Below are positions 6,257-14,017 of a DNA stretch of 41,807 nucleotides, piece after piece (positions within the stretch are counted from its first letter, which is position 1; every line of letters starts with the position of its first letter). The position numbers were made by a program, and so were the translations under genes. Where the stretch lies: positions 1 through 41,807 of the IMG/VR virus record IMGVR_UViG_3300045837_000015. One strand, written 5' to 3'. The notes beneath the pieces are model-generated. The model was not told the DNA's origin. It searched no databases and was given only the letters and a program-made list of their open reading frames with translations. Source of the DNA: a virus (Duplodnaviria; Caudoviricetes).

Positions 6257-6739
6257 TTATCCCGCTGTGATTTGGTCGCATTTGAACGTGCGGAGTTTCG
6301 TCTGTGGTAGTGCGTAAGTGTCGCCGTGTCCAAGGTTGGTGATTGTGTCGGGATTGATTAGTTCTGTGGCGGTCGCGTATCCGACGAAGTCGACTAGATC
6401 GTTGTCGACGATGGCGAGGACGTATATGTCGGCGGCGTCTATTGGTTTTTCTATGTGGGCGAGGAGTTGGCCGCGCGGGTTTTTGGTGGCTTTTATGTCG
6501 ATACGTTTTCCGGCGAGTATGGAGTCGGCGCTGCCGGCTCGGGGTGCGCAGGTGAGATCGGGGTAGATGTTCCAGGCTTTGGCCCAGGCGATTTCGGCGA
6601 TGGCGCCGGTCATGTCGATGTCGATGGCGTCGTGGGCGCGCCGTTTGTCGTTGATTCTGGTGGCTTGATTGACGCAGCGGCGCATGATGGCCATCAGGTG
6701 GGCTGTGGCCAGTTCTCCGCTGTTGAGCGTCACCTTCAT
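6257..6739 (-). CDS. Hypothetical protein, possible PD-(D/E)XK nuclease fold (160 aa, MKVTLNSG...)
   Basis: GAIAE...D...IDIKAT pattern; ATGA overlap at start. Confidence 0.6.
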   Translation of the reverse strand: MKVTLNSGELATAHLMAIMRRCVNQATRINDKRRAHDAIDIDMTGAIAEIAWAKAWNIYPDLTCAPRAGSADSILAGKRIDIKATKNPRGQLLAHIEKPIDAADIYVLAIVDNDLVDFVGYATATELINPDTITNLGHGDTYALPQTKLRTFKCDQITAG

Positions 6740-8838: not shown

Positions 8839-9020
8839 GCTGGTTCCTCGGAGTTGGGGCAAGTCAGACTGTGATGCGCCTTAGTGTTCGTTTCCGCCAA
8901 TCCATCCGGCCAACTGTTCACTGTCATCGTGTTGTCGGCGCGATGCTGTTCACAACGACGACAGGGACAGCTCGGCGTGTACCGCCAGTCGCCAGTCCCG
9001 CAGCTATCGCTATCTCTCAT
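8835..9020 (-). CDS. Hypothetical Cys-rich protein (61 aa)
   Basis: ATGA coupling on both sides. Confidence 0.5.
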   Translation of the reverse strand: MRDSDSCGTGDWRYTPSCPCRRCEQHRADNTMTVNSWPDGLAETNTKAHHSLTCPNSEEPA

Positions 9021-9922
9021 GCTGGTTCCTCGAAGTCAAATGCTGCTTGGGTGAGTCGGGTTTTCAGGCTGAGGTCGAGGTAGTCGCGGTTGATGTCGAT
9101 GCCGATGTATTTGCGGCCGCATCGTTGGGCTGCGGCGCCGGTTGTGCCTGAGCCGCTGAAGGGGTCGAACACGGTGCCGCCTGGTTTGCAGCCGGCTTGT
9201 ATGCAGCGTTGCGGCAACTGGATCGGGTAGACGGCGAAGTGCGCGGCGGCGAAGGGAACTGTCGGCATTGTCCACACATCGCCGGGATTACGTCCTTCGG
9301 TCTTATAGACGCCGGTCATAAAGACGCTTGATTCTTTGGCGCCCGTCCATTTGGCGGTCTTGGTTCTGTTGCAACCGGCATTAGCGGCGGCGCCGTCTTT
9401 GTTGTGTCCGTGTGTGCGTTCTTCCCGTATTGGGTCCAAATCGAACCAGTACCGCCGCGACTTGGAGAACATGAAGATGTGTTCGTAGCGGCTGCTGAGT
9501 CGGTCGGTGACTGATTCGGGCATGGTGTTGGGTTTGTGCCAGATGATGGCGTTGCGGAGTATCCAGCCGTCGTTTTGGAGGGCGAACGCGACGCGCCACG
9601 GCACACCGATTAAGTTCTTATCTGGCACACCGCCGCCACTGCCTTTGATCTTGCTGCTATAGCTGTCACCGAGGTTGAGCCACAACGTGCCATCACCAGC
9701 CAGCACCCGCCGCAGCCCGGCGAACAGTCCGCGCAGCCGCTCCACATACTCGGCCGGCGATGACTCCAACCCGTACTGGCCGTCAATCCCGTAGTCCCGC
9801 AACCCGAAATACGGTGGGCTGGTGACGATGCAATCCACGCCGCCGCTAGGCAACTGGCGTGCGACGTCGAGGGCGTCGCCGTGGTACAGCGTCACCTGAT
9901 CATCACTGAAATAGGGTTTCAC
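9017..9922 (-). CDS. DNA methyltransferase, N6/N4 family (beta-class motif order; SPPY suggests N4-cytosine)
   Basis: TSPPY catalytic motif N-terminal, DPFSGSGTT SAM-binding motif C-terminal, HFAVYP. Confidence 0.92.
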   Translation of the reverse strand: MKPYFSDDQVTLYHGDALDVARQLPSGGVDCIVTSPPYFGLRDYGIDGQYGLESSPAEYVERLRGLFAGLRRVLAGDGTLWLNLGDSYSSKIKGSGGGVPDKNLIGVPWRVAFALQNDGWILRNAIIWHKPNTMPESVTDRLSSRYEHIFMFSKSRRYWFDLDPIREERTHGHNKDGAAANAGCNRTKTAKWTGAKESSVFMTGVYKTEGRNPGDVWTMPTVPFAAAHFAVYPIQLPQRCIQAGCKPGGTVFDPFSGSGTTGAAAQRCGRKYIGIDINRDYLDLSLKTRLTQAAFDFEEPA

Positions 9923-10522: not shown

Positions 10523-10908
10523 TTCGCCTCCAGTTGGTTGAGTTGTTTTGCAACGTGGTTCGCCCAGTGCCGCAGCTGGTAGAAGTCGTCACCGCAAGTA
10601 CATATAAGCCAGCTGTCGTCGGGATCTGGCCAGTAAGGACTGTGCGCAAGGATGACGTCCGCCGGGGTGACTGCTGGTGGTTTGGAGTGGCCCGCGCCTG
10701 CGGGGGGGTGGGGGGGCTGGCGCGGGCCGTCCCCGGCGGCGGGCGGAAAGGAGTAAGACTCCGCGGCCGGGGAAGACTCGAAGTCCCAATCGATTTGATC
10801 AGTTAACGGGCGGAAGAAGTTTTCGACAGCGCAGCCGAGCCGGTCAGCGCGACGCGCCAACCATGTCTGTACTTCGTTGGTGACGGTTTTGATGACGGGT
10901 GGGATCAT
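10519..10908 (-). CDS. Hypothetical protein (129 aa, MIPPVIKT...)
   Basis: GGAGG RBS; C-terminal H...CTCG...H..H motif. Confidence 0.6.
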   Translation of the reverse strand: MIPPVIKTVTNEVQTWLARRADRLGCAVENFFRPLTDQIDWDFESSPAAESYSFPPAAGDGPRQPPHPPAGAGHSKPPAVTPADVILAHSPYWPDPDDSWLICTCGDDFYQLRHWANHVAKQLNQLEAK

Positions 10909-12215
10909 GCTGCTACCTCCGCGATGTGCAGGAGCCAGTGCAGTGCTGCGGTGGCTTGTTGTGGGACTACGCCGTTGCCGATGATGCGTAGGGCGTCGTT
11001 GCGGCTGATGCCTGGCACGGCGGTGACCCAGCCTTGCGGCCAGCCCATCATCCATTCGCTGAATGCGGCTGCTAGGCGCGGGTTTCCGTTTTTATTGGGT
11101 TCGGTGGGTGCGGGTGCGGGGCGGGTGGCTGCTTCCCAGCGGCGTATCGCAGGCTCGTACTTGCCCCACTGTGGCGAGTCATGCAGCAGCGCGAAGTCGA
11201 TGAGCTGGCGTGAATGTCCTTCACGGTTATCGGGGTGGGCGCCGCCGCCTGTTGAGTCGCTAGCTGCTGGTGTCGGCAGGTAGTGGTCAACTGCAGCGAG
11301 GGAAGGTGTGTGCCTGTTGTAGTCGCCTTCGCAGGCTTGTCGGCTGTCGCGGGACAGCGGCGTCGGCAGCAAGTGGCAGCCGCGGCCACGGTCATGGCCA
11401 GCGTCCGCATCAGGTGTCGGCAGTAGGTTTACAGGTCGGTCACCGCTGACGGCAGCATCAGATCGCCGCTCAAGCCGCGCTGGTTCGGGCCGCCCTTCAT
11501 GCCGTCCGTCGCCCGAGGAGTCGGCAGCATCGCCGCCACATGCGGGACGTCCGCTAACGCGTTCTCGAGGTTGCACGGCTTGTGTGGCCGCAGATAGATG
11601 TTGCTGTTCCGCGTTTCCTGCTGGGCCGCTCTCGGTGTCGGCAGCAGGTTGGCGATCTGGCGCTCCAGGTAGTTCTCGTTGTATTCCCCTGACGGGCGCC
11701 GCCGCGCCGTTGGGCCGCCCTGGTGCGCCTGCGGTGTCCCCAGCAAGGACGAAGACTCGCTCCCGCCGGTGTGGCGCCCCGACATCTGAAGCTCGTAGGC
11801 TGCACCATTGCGTGTCATACCGCATGCCGGCCAGGTCTGCGAGTACTCGATCGAACCCCAGAATCCGATGTCCGGCCACATTTTCCAGGACGACGTATCG
11901 GGGTCGTAGATGGCGAATTGCGTCCGCGAAGTAGGGCCATAGGTGGCGTTCATCGTCTGTTCCTTTGCGTTGCCCCGCTGCGGAGAATGGCTGGCACGGG
12001 TAGCCGCCGCACAGGACATCCACTGCGGCGACGGTTGTCTCCCAGTAGCGGACGGCGGTGATGTCACCGATGTTGGGTGCGTAGGGCCAGTGGTGTGCGA
12101 GGACTCTGCTTGCGGCCGGGTCGTTTTCGCAGTGCCACACCACCTGGCCGCCGAACACGTGCTCGACGGCGAGGTCGAGGCCACCAGCACCGGAGAACAG
12201 CGAACCGATCCTCAT
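10905..12215 (-). CDS. C5-cytosine DNA methyltransferase
   Basis: SLFSGAGG (I), GGYPCQPFS (IV), ENV (VI), HRRER (VIII), EWMMGWPQGW (IX), IGNGVVP (X); start ATG 12215. Confidence 0.92.
   Translation of the reverse strand: MRIGSLFSGAGGLDLAVEHVFGGQVVWHCENDPAASRVLAHHWPYAPNIGDITAVRYWETTVAAVDVLCGGYPCQPFSAAGQRKGTDDERHLWPYFADAIRHLRPRYVVLENVAGHRILGFDRVLADLAGMRYDTQWCSLRASDVGAPHRRERVFVLAGDTAGAPGRPNGAAAPVRGIQRELPGAPDRQPAADTESGPAGNAEQQHLSAATQAVQPRERVSGRPACGGDAADSSGDGRHEGRPEPARLERRSDAAVSGDRPVNLLPTPDADAGHDRGRGCHLLPTPLSRDSRQACEGDYNRHTPSLAAVDHYLPTPAASDSTGGGAHPDNREGHSRQLIDFALLHDSPQWGKYEPAIRRWEAATRPAPAPTEPNKNGNPRLAAAFSEWMMGWPQGWVTAVPGISRNDALRIIGNGVVPQQATAALHWLLHIAEVAA
11429..11953 (-). CDS. Nested out-of-frame ORF inside the C5 MTase (beta-subunit-like, 174 aa)
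   Basis: AAAGGA RBS and ATG at 11953; MNATYGPTS...WPACGMTRNG...LLPTPRA repeats. Confidence 0.65.
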   Translation of the reverse strand: MNATYGPTSRTQFAIYDPDTSSWKMWPDIGFWGSIEYSQTWPACGMTRNGAAYELQMSGRHTGGSESSSLLGTPQAHQGGPTARRRPSGEYNENYLERQIANLLPTPRAAQQETRNSNIYLRPHKPCNLENALADVPHVAAMLPTPRATDGMKGGPNQRGLSGDLMLPSAVTDL

Positions 12216-12349
12216 TGCTTGTCCTCCCGGCGTTGTTGTGCATGCTGGCGTCCGCGTCGGCAGCGTGGACACTTCCCAACGCTGTCGAAGCGGCATGAGT
12301 CGTGGCCGCATCGGCGCCACTGATCAATCAGCTTGTCCAACACAGTCAT
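12212..12349 (-). CDS. Small Cys-rich protein (45 aa, MTVLDKLI...)
   Basis: CGHDSC...CPRC; ATGA overlaps on both sides. Confidence 0.55.
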   Translation of the reverse strand: MTVLDKLIDQWRRCGHDSCRFDSVGKCPRCRRGRQHAQQRREDKQ

Positions 12350-12558
12350 GCGGCTGGTGTTTCGCCGTCGGGGTTCGGGGAGCTGCGGTTGTGCAGCCAG
12401 CGCGCGAGTTCGCGTGGTTCGATCAGGTAGGCGCCGGTGGTGCCGCCGAGTTTGTGGGCTTTGAGGTCGCCGCGGCGGATGGCGGCCTGGATGGTGCGTT
12501 TGGGGATGTTGTGTGTTTTGGATGCCTCGGCCACGGTGATGGGCGGGGTGTTTGGCAT
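12346..12558 (-). CDS. Cro/excisionase-like winged HTH protein, probably leaderless
   Basis: ITVAEAS....IPKRTIQAAIRRGDLKAHK...YLI pattern; first gene of the leftward early operon. Confidence 0.8.
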   Translation of the reverse strand: MPNTPPITVAEASKTHNIPKRTIQAAIRRGDLKAHKLGGTTGAYLIEPRELARWLHNRSSPNPDGETPAA

Positions 12559-12564
12559 ACGCAC

Positions 12565-12594
12565 AACCTAGACGCGGATGGCGTAGTTGCGCAA
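12565..12594 (-). promoter_or_regulatory. SigA-type promoter for the leftward early operon
   Basis: TTGCGC-18 bp-TAGGTT, then 6 nt to ATG 12558 (leaderless spacing). Confidence 0.65.
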
Positions 12595-12644
12595 GCACCA
12601 AAGTGGGGTGTTTTATAGATCAGGTCATCTGTTGCGTAGATGCG
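12581..12644. promoter_or_regulatory. Pair of candidate operator sites GCGTAG(T/A)TGCG
   Basis: GCGTAGTTGCG at 12581-12591 overlapping the -35, and GCGTAGATGCG at 12634-12644. Confidence 0.5.
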
Positions 12645-12667
12645 GCTAAGGGTCGACCTATGAGCTA

Positions 12668-12698
12668 AAGCCTGTAATCACCTTCGGTTCCCGGCCAG
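12668..12698 (+). repeat. Cassette repeat copy 1 (31 bp)
   Basis: AAGCCTGTAATCACCTTCGGTTCCCGGCCAG, identical to 12896-12926. Confidence 0.95.
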
Positions 12699-12717
12699 AT
12701 GAGGAAAAGAGGATCGC

Positions 12718-12894
12718 ATGACCCGAGTAACTGACCTGACGGCTGCGGTGCGCGCTGATTTACACCGCATCCTAGAAGTGTGTGATGAGGTGTTTCTTTC
12801 TGGTCATCCAGAACTGAGTTCACAAATCGCTGAGATTGTGGACCGGGTTAATAGGCAGGTCGAAGAGTTGTCGTACCTGGCAGCAGGCGACTGA
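12718..12894 (+). CDS. Small helical protein (58 aa; not in ORF track)
   Basis: GAGGA RBS; MTRVTDLTAAVRADLHRILEVCDEVFLSGHPELSSQIAEIVDRVNRQVEELSYLAAGD; stop lies 1 nt before repeat copy 2. Confidence 0.75.
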   Translation: MTRVTDLTAAVRADLHRILEVCDEVFLSGHPELSSQIAEIVDRVNRQVEELSYLAAGD

Positions 12895-12895
12895 C

Positions 12896-12926
12896 AAGCC
12901 TGTAATCACCTTCGGTTCCCGGCCAG
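12896..12926 (+). repeat. Cassette repeat copy 2 (31 bp)
   Basis: Exact copy of 12668-12698. Confidence 0.95.
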
Positions 12927-12941
12927 CGGCATAGGAGAATA

Positions 12942-13121
12942 ATGGCTGAAAGCCTGACCAATATTTGTGTATGCGGACACAGCAGGTATCAGCACCTAAC
13001 TTCACGCGGGGTGCCGACAGACTGCTCTGGCCGATGCTTGTGTGAGATATGCCCCGATGACACCGAGAACGACTGCTGGTGCGCGGGTTTCAAAGAAGTA
13101 GACGAACCGACAAGCCTGTAA
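12942..13121 (+). CDS. Small Cys-rich protein (59 aa; not in ORF track)
   Basis: AGGAG RBS; MAESLTNICVCGHSRYQHLTSRGVPTDCSGRCLCEICPDDTENDCWCAGFKEVDEPTSL; TAA lies inside repeat copy 3. Confidence 0.75.
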   Translation: MAESLTNICVCGHSRYQHLTSRGVPTDCSGRCLCEICPDDTENDCWCAGFKEVDEPTSL

Positions 13122-13138
13122 TCTTATGGTTACTGGCC
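13112..13138 (+). repeat. Cassette repeat copy 3 (diverged, more strongly palindromic)
   Basis: AAGCCTGTAATC-TTAT-GGTTACTGGCC. Confidence 0.8.
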
Positions 13139-13155
13139 TAGCAAAAGGAGAGCCT

Positions 13156-13353
13156 ATGTCGCTAACCGATGCCGAGATGTCGCGCCTTATTGGTCGCAGA
13201 ACGGCAATGGCTGAGCTTGAGTATGCACTAGAAGATTTCCGCACCGCTCAGGGTGGCAGAAGTATCGATGCACGGCTCAGTGCTGGCAACAACGTGGCGA
13301 AGATGGCCGGCAATCTCCTCGCCGTGCTGCGCGGTGAGGCCGATCCGACGTAA
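13156..13353 (+). CDS. Small helical protein (65 aa, MSLTDAEM...)
   Basis: AAAAGGAG RBS before ATG 13156. Confidence 0.75.
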   Translation: MSLTDAEMSRLIGRRTAMAELEYALEDFRTAQGGRSIDARLSAGNNVAKMAGNLLAVLRGEADPT

Positions 13354-13464
13354 CTCTTTTGTACCGGTTGACATGAGGGCCGCCTATGACGCATATGTAT
13401 CACATGGGGGTGGGGCGGCTCCCAACCGGGTGGGATGACGCGGTCAGCCGCTGGCTGGCGCCAT

Positions 13465-13581
13465 CTAGTCGTGGTTGAGTTGGGACCGGAACTCGGTGCA
13501 GTCGCAGAACTTGCAGTCCCAACCCTCATCGTGAACCATGCCGGCGTGCCCGCAGTCGCAGATTTCCATAGCCGATAACAT
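13465..13581 (-). CDS. Small CxCGH zinc-binding-like peptide (start near 13581 or at 13569)
   Basis: MEICDCGHAGMVHDEGWDCKFCDCTEFRS motif; start uncertain. Confidence 0.5.
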   Translation of the reverse strand: MLSAMEICDCGHAGMVHDEGWDCKFCDCTEFRSQLNHD

Positions 13582-13611: not shown

Positions 13612-13905
13612 ATGACGCACATGCATCCAGGTGATTACATCAGCTTTGAGAAAGACGGCGCGATCCACACCGAGCGCGTCGAGTCGGTCCATTACAGCAG
13701 CGGTTCGCCAGCCATCTATAAGAGACTGAACCGCTGGCAGCAGATGGTGCGGCGATTTACGCCACGACGCTGGCGCAAGTCGCTGCTGGTGCGCGCTGCC
13801 GAGCCACCGTCAATCAGGATCAACGATCCTAACCAGAGTCCAATTGGCAAGACGCTGGCACAGCTTGAGCAGATGAAAGCCAGCATCGACCGGTTGCTGC
13901 AGTAA
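13612..13905 (+). CDS. Hypothetical protein (97 aa)
   Basis: Plus-strand ORF ending just before the hairpin; alternative start 13621. Confidence 0.6.
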   Translation: MTHMHPGDYISFEKDGAIHTERVESVHYSSGSPAIYKRLNRWQQMVRRFTPRRWRKSLLVRAAEPPSIRINDPNQSPIGKTLAQLEQMKASIDRLLQ

Positions 13906-13924
13906 CTACGCGGAACGACGAATA

Positions 13925-13970
13925 GCCCCTGGTGTGAGCTGCCATGTTCGGCCGCTCAAACACCAGGGGC
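13925..13970. terminator. Hairpin between convergent transcription units
   Basis: GCCCCTGGTG...CACCAGGGGC 10-bp inverted repeat with inner TGAGC/GCTCA stem. Confidence 0.7.
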
Positions 13971-14017
13971 AAGTCGGAAAGTCTAGCTAAAGTCAACTAA
14001 AGTCAAACTTTGACTTT
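13971..14017. repeat. Clustered AAAGTC(AA) direct and inverted repeats
   Basis: CTAAAGTCAA tandem at 13987 and 13997, AAAGTC at 13978, AAGTC at 13971, inverted TTGACTTT at 14010. Confidence 0.7.

Follow-up and report, generated by a model that had tools for sequence, protein, structure and literature searches.

The array and its position in the phage genome

The window (the whole 41,807-nt stretch of DNA analysed here) is a partial tailed-phage genome, approximately 60% complete, whose sequence was present in soil and rhizosphere DNA runs. Its nearest tail proteins are those of mycobacteriophages, suggesting that the host is mycobacterial. Almost every gene lies on the minus strand, whereas a three-repeat array occupies the plus strand. 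A Cro/Xis-like HTH gene flanks it on one side and the end of the lysis operon on the other, a position usually taken by phage immunity and integration genes. The features of this region are as follows.

12346..12558, minus strand: Cro/Xis-like HTH_17 gene, first of the lytic arm (PF12728, E 4e-9)
12559..12659, no strand: divergent control region, homologous to cro-rep intergenic regions by position and partly by sequence (L028 alignment)
12660..12668, plus strand: two-codon frame, Met-Ser-stop, near the repressor-start position of relatives
12670..12695, plus strand: site 1 (arm 12670-12679, 6-bp spacer, arm 12686-12695)
12680..12907, plus strand: proposed cassette unit 1, 228 bp (spacer, right arm, RBS, ORF1, left arm)
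12718-12894, plus strand: ORF1, 58 aa, orphan, stopping 1 nt before copy 2
12898..12923, plus strand: site 2, identical to site 1
12908..13123, plus strand: proposed cassette unit 2, 216 bp, with presumed boundaries
12942-13121, plus strand: ORF2, 59 aa, its stop a TAA inside site 3
13114..13137, plus strand: site 3, with the canonical geometry (10-bp arm, 4-bp spacer, 10-bp arm)
13156-13353, plus strand: ORF3, 65 aa, orphan, with no site at its 3' end
13612..13905, plus strand: phrog_7097 gene (PHROG match; 63% aa identity to L032:6920-7195)
13919..13976, no strand: terminator-like inverted repeat with 17-bp arms, at the junction with the lysis operon

The repeat AAGCCTGTAATC begins at 12668, 12896, and 13112 and, allowing for at most one mismatch, was absent elsewhere in the window. 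An earlier sequence-only reading had described three repeat-RBS-ORF units spaced 228 and 216 bp apart with ORFs of 58-65 aa, and these positions and ORFs were confirmed, as were the plus-strand orientation, the location of the ORF1 and ORF2 stops, and the 31-bp identity of copies 1 and 2, which is the sole exact 31-bp repeat in the 41.8 kb. The array was also AT-rich, as that reading had it; its GC content was 54.7% compared with 61.6%, placing it in the lowest 1% among 412 windows of equal size. Using a site score derived from the window sites and the related sites themselves, three sites scored at least 27 in the window and none in each of 10 base shuffles; a threshold of 23 was abandoned because the shuffles gave as many sites as the window. 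A 735-nt contig from a second run, X10, which may come from the same sampling campaign as the window, covered 12677-13411 with zero differences, indicating that the gene order is not an assembly artefact.

The leaders following the three sites differed, and the repeat was restricted to this one locus. An SD-like stretch preceded each ORF, being strongest for ORF3 and weakest for ORF1. As had been claimed, the cargo proteins showed no mutual resemblance, and Atlas look-ups returned no named family. Word-index searches with the three ORFs gave nothing beyond the query itself; ORF1 matched ORF1 alone, and no PHROG or Pfam family was found for it. ORF2 gave 14 matches at E<=1e-3, and alignment of 12 of these, all short proteins, revealed eight Cys and two His residues as invariant. 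ORF2 thus belongs to a small Cys/His-rich family that is likely zinc-binding. In isolated phages ORF2 had two weak matches only, and its family was not found in five related contigs. ORF3 is predicted to be a small helical protein; its word-index search returned only itself, and its Atlas model matched generic helical stretches and no family. A 34-aa ORF of the CxCGH type (13465-13569, minus strand), which is of the same general type as ORF2, was noted inside the variable region described below.

The flanks of the array resembled those of an immunity region. The HTH gene and the adjoining intergenic region were 76% identical at the nucleotide level to L028 and 69% to G702; in both, rep comes next, and the homologue of the window HTH gene faces the repressor. 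The L032 homologue of the phrog_7097 gene lies immediately 3' of int. Since the region before the array matches the cro-rep interval of L028 and G702 and the gene after it matches the gene directly after int in L032, the array occupies the rep-attP-int slot. The window lacks the rep, attP, and int that relatives carry at the array position. An attP with tRNA homology inside the repressor was present in L028, L032, L033, L097, and G702 and absent from the window, and the repressor of a relative had no window match (best E 0.41). The Met-Ser frame begins 101 nt from the HTH start, compared with 119-120 nt for the repressor in L028 and G702, and is possibly a remnant of a lost repressor gene. The promoter reading the array likely lies within 12559..12659, although a plus-strand scan for one promoter type, the sigma-70 consensus, gave no match at the control region or at the window sites. 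No plus-strand terminator was matched at the repeats.

Contigs from X9 and X10 either departed from the window sequence after 12629 or joined it no earlier than 13914. This suggests that the region is variable, with the inverted repeat at 13919..13976 as its right edge. An X1 contig joined 13137 to 13364 with five foreign letters and a short side of 27 nt, and this joint was not a clean unit loss. The precise 228-bp deletions or circles that the sequence-only reading had suggested looking for did not appear; in the contigs of four runs, neither a circle nor a clean 228- or 216-bp deletion was found. Three further observations concern this part of the genome. First, TTGACA at 13368-13373 is followed by a 16-bp imperfect palindrome with no clear -10 (13364-13410), and the X1 contig placed a site-like stretch directly before it. 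Second, DNA methyltransferase coding extends over two long overlapping frames (10905-12320 and 11429-12190, minus strand), possibly reflecting a frameshift or a split gene. Third, a second methyltransferase lies at 9017-9922.

Related arrays and the identity of the sites

Several searches for relatives gave nothing. BLAST of the island, repeat 3, and two related arrays/sites against 50,697 phage records returned nothing relevant, and locus scans with single proteins (HTH, DUF7427, and exonuclease) found no relatives. A possible resemblance between the repeat and the SRP Alu motif, or the 3' end of a tRNA, was weighed and set aside. A scan with the endolysin gave contig L028, which led to the related loci; L027 contained no array. 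In L028, the gene facing the HTH gene encodes an XRE repressor, and its 3' end contains a tRNA-like attP; four small ORFs come next, and then a 285-aa tyrosine integrase that carries PF00589 only and is 46% identical to BPs Int. In phages of the BPs type, attP lies within rep, and there are neither arm-type sites nor a directionality factor (PMC3694055 and PMC9262239). The L028 ORFs have three palindromes between them that were shaped like the L028 att core, with two 10-bp arms around 4 bp.

Closer relatives of this integrase carry one such site shortly upstream of int. In G520, G667, and G637, the arm of the pre-int site is CCTGTAATC, the same as the window arm. In the G702 att, tRNA-Asn sequence is joined at the 4-bp core to this same arm, indicating that it is the phage arm of att. 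Except for two additional spacer bases, window sites 1 and 2 agreed with 17 positions of the G702 att core, and the annotated BPs attP ends where the 10+4+10 geometry predicts. From these sequence comparisons, the window repeats are very probably core-type sites of a clade of armless (BPs/Brujita-type) integrases acting at tRNA-Asn. The sequence-only reading had stated that no site-specific recombinase was present. Within the window, a partial genome, this held for PF00589 and tyrosine integrases; however, relatives have an armless tyrosine integrase in this place, and its att arm is the arm of the repeat. The att within the G702 repressor (L091 4119-4200 / L127 10590-10650) carries the 5' part of tRNA-Asn where a 3' half would be usual. 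Its phage arm lies on the other side, and integration there may run in the reverse sense.

The integrase clade (support 98/99) comprised 14 rows: three with arrays, five with a single site upstream of int, one with a weak site, three with none, and two at a contig edge. One genome with unscored candidates was omitted from this survey, and a phylum-wide integrase search gave 0/301 at E<=1e-60. No multiplied full sites were found in BPs, Paito, Weirdo19, Bipper, Typha, Bakery, or McGonagall, seven isolated phages with more distant armless integrases. Lunt and Hatfull reportedly found in 2016 that Brujita attP requires an extra Int site displaced from the core; this may be the normal role of the single pre-int site.

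A strict pattern matched five places in 401 Mycobacterium-genus genomes, compared with one place for the reversed control, and no array was found there. Three of the five matches lay upstream of clade integrases, and these three had been used to build the pattern. Another lay in a 573-bp att-bounded remnant at tRNA-Asn (L121 1366-2010, G501), consisting of an intact tRNA, one site, a 108-aa ORF (phrog_658), and a duplicated tRNA 3' half, with no integrase; the integrase survey gave no clade integrase for G501. The fifth match was unexplained.

Arrays of this site type were found in four phage contigs besides the window, each with different cargo.

L028: three sites between attP and int
L033: one site on each side of int and two more downstream, on the opposite strand
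L097: one full site and two half-sites between attP and int
L098: five full sites and one half-site

The pattern that picked up L097 and L098 had been fixed before either contig was seen. The pattern scan gave 27 stretches: eight with an Int relative, one array without, one lone GC-rich site, and 17 low-GC stretches (GC 0.35-0.45), which were set aside. A perfect single site was present at L085 1695-1718 (G701), a viral fragment of 8.5 kb that is GC-rich and lacks an integrase. The matching integrase was missing for two arrays, those of the window and of G700, where only an unrelated 374-aa integrase was found.

These arrays largely refute a one-off local duplication without continuing function. 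The exact repeat, searched for in three collections, was found 0 times in viral contigs and as 15 and 11 scattered single matches in genome and metagenome contigs, respectively, which were treated as chance; taken alone, this pattern would suit a duplication. However, four more arrays share the site type and the gene punctuation, and ORF2 belongs to a conserved family, so we give this explanation hardly any weight. The sequence-only reading had proposed asking whether the repeat flanks different small ORFs elsewhere; the site type does so in four contigs, whereas the exact repeat gave the scattered single matches only.

Several other repeats were noted in these contigs. L028 contains a second repeat family before small ORFs (approximately 2030-2960, 5157 on the plus strand, and 7400 on the minus strand), composed of TTGACA, 17 bp with a short hairpin, and TACAGT, which resembles an actinophage array of PeSL-type promoter cassettes. 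Palindromes similar to the sites, but spaced by 5 bp, occur at L028 477-501 and 2237-2260 and at L030 1260-1285, one of them in the lysis region before a 204-aa ORF. In L032, a motif ending in GGTTATCGGC is repeated three times downstream of int (8252, 8887, and 9951). In L047 (G004), an integrase gene lies between direct sites at 6703 and 7789 whose spacers differ at one base, and this gene could be an excisable unit.

Punctuation, folding, and possible working of the sites

The sites punctuated the genes of all five arrays. An ORF ended within -10 to +20 of the site at 15 of 19 array sites (null, 16%) and on the TAA of the arm at nine (null, 10%); an RBS and ATG just after the site were present at 12 (null, 6%), and an upstream ORF end together with a downstream RBS/ATG at nine (null, 2.3%). 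For the null, 639 TAA positions were taken from the two strands of these contigs, and the sense strands were assigned by the analyst. Start codons lay 5-22 nt after the site, often 18. Some units held two ORFs, and the sites L028C, L033c, and L098s5 closed arrays with no gene following. A PHROG scan of 19 proteins gave no family for 14, weak matches for three, and clear matches for two; weak hits aside, no match for 16 of the 19 passed E 1e-3. L033 and L098 share a head module, in which the RHH gene is 67% identical at the amino acid level and the 52-nt leader 81% identical, with divergent cargo downstream. Among the five arrays, no downstream cargo gene was common to two arrays or present at two positions. 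The idea of modular, exchangeable cassettes was upheld with respect to modular units and different cargo in four more contigs, but no unit was seen in two places.

The regular distance from site to start codon could also be explained if the sites were operators or roadblocks at which Int or another phage protein tunes each small gene, similar to the ESAS of cluster K phages. A single copy upstream of int would suit autoregulation, and binding would tolerate a variable spacer and the 6-bp form more easily than recombination would. ESAS are likewise inverted repeats with a variable spacer near gene starts and are read as protein-binding in PMC3203893. However, the scan for one promoter type found no consensus at the window sites, the array-closing sites have no gene after them, and the RHH candidate binder was present in two of five arrays and not in the window. 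We consider the operator explanation improbable, though it deserves some weight.

The sequence-only reading favored an RNA or ssDNA hairpin based on a conserved stem, noting that copy 3 pairs better and has a loop of 4 instead of 6. The latter was correct: the spacers are 4 and 6 bp, and the fold energy was -10.1 kcal/mol for copy 3 and -4.9 kcal/mol (a weak stem) for copies 1 and 2. The conserved stem did not hold beyond the window. At the variable arm position, 22 related non-att sites (sense strand) had T-A in eight, C-G in five, a C.A mismatch in five, and T.G in four, and several barely folded (-0.1 to -4 kcal/mol). The hairpin argument can be attributed to the three window copies all happening to give T.G. 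Mixed pairing, weak folds, and the same arm in att cores fit independent DNA half-sites. RNA hairpins acting in processing or translational control would agree with T.G in all three window copies and with the fold of copy 3, but C.A mismatches are as common as T.G, several sites barely fold, the arm is that of att, and Rfam gave three sub-threshold matches with none at the gathering level; this explanation is very improbable. The R boxes of integrons follow the patterns RYYYAAC and GTTRRRY, and both were absent from every window copy. The likeness to attC drawn in the sequence-only reading therefore applies to the architecture and not to the boxes.

The arms and spacers bear on whether the sites recombine. 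Every other full site tabulated has a 4-bp spacer, in contrast to the 6 bp of sites 1 and 2. Spacers recurred within arrays (TGCC three times in L097 and CGAT three times in L098), and direct sites on both sides of int in L033 had near-identical spacers. However, neighboring sites often differed in spacer, as did all three in L028; differing spacers block ordinary tyrosine-recombinase exchange. Right arms were more decayed than left arms. Three half-sites consisted of the left arm and spacer followed by other DNA, as expected from exchange with foreign DNA. When each unit was taken to start at its spacer and to finish with the following left arm, units 1 and 2 had near-equal ends (the first 19 bp and 17 of the last 18 bp in common) with different cargo, and removal of either would leave one whole site.

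Shuffling by the phage's own exonuclease/annealing pair, as proposed in the sequence-only reading, was not supported and is retained as an alternative, namely that sites of integrase descent now serve only as short homology blocks for RecE/RecT, comparable to PeSLs or boundary sequences. Genes for an exonuclease and a RecT-like protein are present in the window, the matching integrase is missing in two arrays, sites 1 and 2 share 31 identical bp, arms resemble each other more within one array than across arrays, and T4-type phages provide documented cases of PeSL exchange and mini-circles (PMC2839356). On the other hand, the common stretches measure just 12-31 bp, and homology blocks leave unexplained why the two arms and their 4-bp separation persist despite a varying spacer and why half-sites break exactly after the spacer. 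We regard this alternative as unlikely. Both it and the operator explanation can be compatible with an integrase origin of the sites.

The reading that we prefer, with a probability of roughly 0.55, is that the locus is an orphaned, integrase-built cassette array, integron-like in its working yet not an integron. Judging from the sequences, the armless tRNA-Asn integrase would likely excise and insert units bounded by array sites. A directionless Int that needs core sites only could use direct sites with the same spacer as substrates: it would bind the array sites, recombine two of them, and free the intervening unit as a circle, which could re-enter at another site in the same phage or a co-infecting phage. 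Each unit would supply its own RBS, one upstream promoter would read all of them, and the TAA of the arm would terminate incoming frames. The window array is likely orphaned; exchange there would now depend on Int supplied in trans, and sites 1 and 2 may have been frozen by their 6-bp spacer. The evidence against integrase-built cassettes includes the differing spacers of neighboring sites, the lack of any unit seen twice and of circles or clean deletions in the contigs of four runs, the two arrays without an enzyme, the wrong spacing in sites 1 and 2, and the more decayed right arms. The seven isolated phages without multiplied full sites and the strict-pattern scan of 401 genomes without an array also count against it. 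A broader proposal is a phage-borne integron analogue, in which the armless integrase would shuffle cassettes, make new ones by off-target exchange, and excise its own gene, with orphan arrays serviced in trans. Off-target exchange of this kind would leave half-sites of left arm plus spacer and frames ending on the TAA of the arm. We offer this broader proposal only tentatively and think it rather doubtful.

Comparison with known systems

Repeats at gene boundaries in a variable region are known from the PeSL cassettes of T4-type phages (Arbiol et al. 2010, PMC2839356). PeSLs also resemble the window sites in having the upstream stop and the downstream SD inside the element and in carrying orphan cargo. 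In contrast, they have no likeness to att and include a terminator along with a sigma-70 promoter, whereas neither was matched at the window sites in the plus-strand scan. The ESAS of cluster K mycobacteriophages, associated with SAS (Pope et al. 2011, PMC3203893), are imperfect inverted repeats whose spacer varies; they lie immediately before a start site and are read as DNA-binding sites. They differ from the window sites in their 17-bp arms, in being tied to a conserved 13-bp SAS and spread over the right genome arm, and in being conserved with a gene family; the window-type arms are 10 bp, match att, and occupy one slot with varying cargo. The window sites are not of the type of the cluster O repeat described in PMC4351075.

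The relatives also resemble integration-dependent immunity (BPs, Brujita, and Charlie; the IntBrujita subgroup), a three-gene unit of approximately 2 kb according to PMC3694055. In the relatives, cro is accompanied by an armless Int and by a rep gene whose 3' end contains attP, and the 10+4+10 core geometry is common to both. The window keeps the divergent cro-like HTH_17 gene and the homologous intergenic region, and its array fills the slot of the system; it differs in having no rep, no attP with tRNA homology, and no armless int. A further difference is that core-type sites are multiplied between small genes here. Integrase core-type sites multiplied into small-gene arrays, and apparently orphaned in the window phage, are what the sequences suggest is new; the literature consulted, largely without subscription papers and without the Brujita integrase paper, contained no account of core-site arrays for armless integrases.

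Mosaicism in mycobacteriophages is mostly credited to illegitimate recombination, with boundary sequences rarely found, and reviews name integrase-mediated events as a possible source (PMC3029335 and PMC9262239). If the broader proposal is true, the arrays would provide a site-specific path to single-gene mosaicism in these phages. With a defined 24-bp site, an enzyme, and five natural arrays, such a route is testable in M. smegmatis. Because the arrays lie beside lysogeny genes and carry orphan microproteins, the site also provides a search handle for accessory genes that annotation misses.

Integrons and CALINs share with the window-type arrays mostly single-gene units between tyrosine-recombinase-type sites (PMC4889954 and PMC8618304) and an array likely read from one upstream promoter. 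CALINs, as described in PMC8618304, also resemble those window-type arrays that have no integrase of their own. Several points set the window-type arrays apart: no IntI was found, with no PF00589 protein in the window and BPs-like integrases beside related arrays, and each site is a double-strand palindrome of 24-26 bp that lacks R boxes and shows no conserved fold. Recombination would fall to the integrase that the phage itself encodes. The origin of new integron cassettes was stated as unknown in 2016 (PMC4889954); if the broader proposal is true, the phage arrays would offer a testable model for the first creation of gene cassettes.
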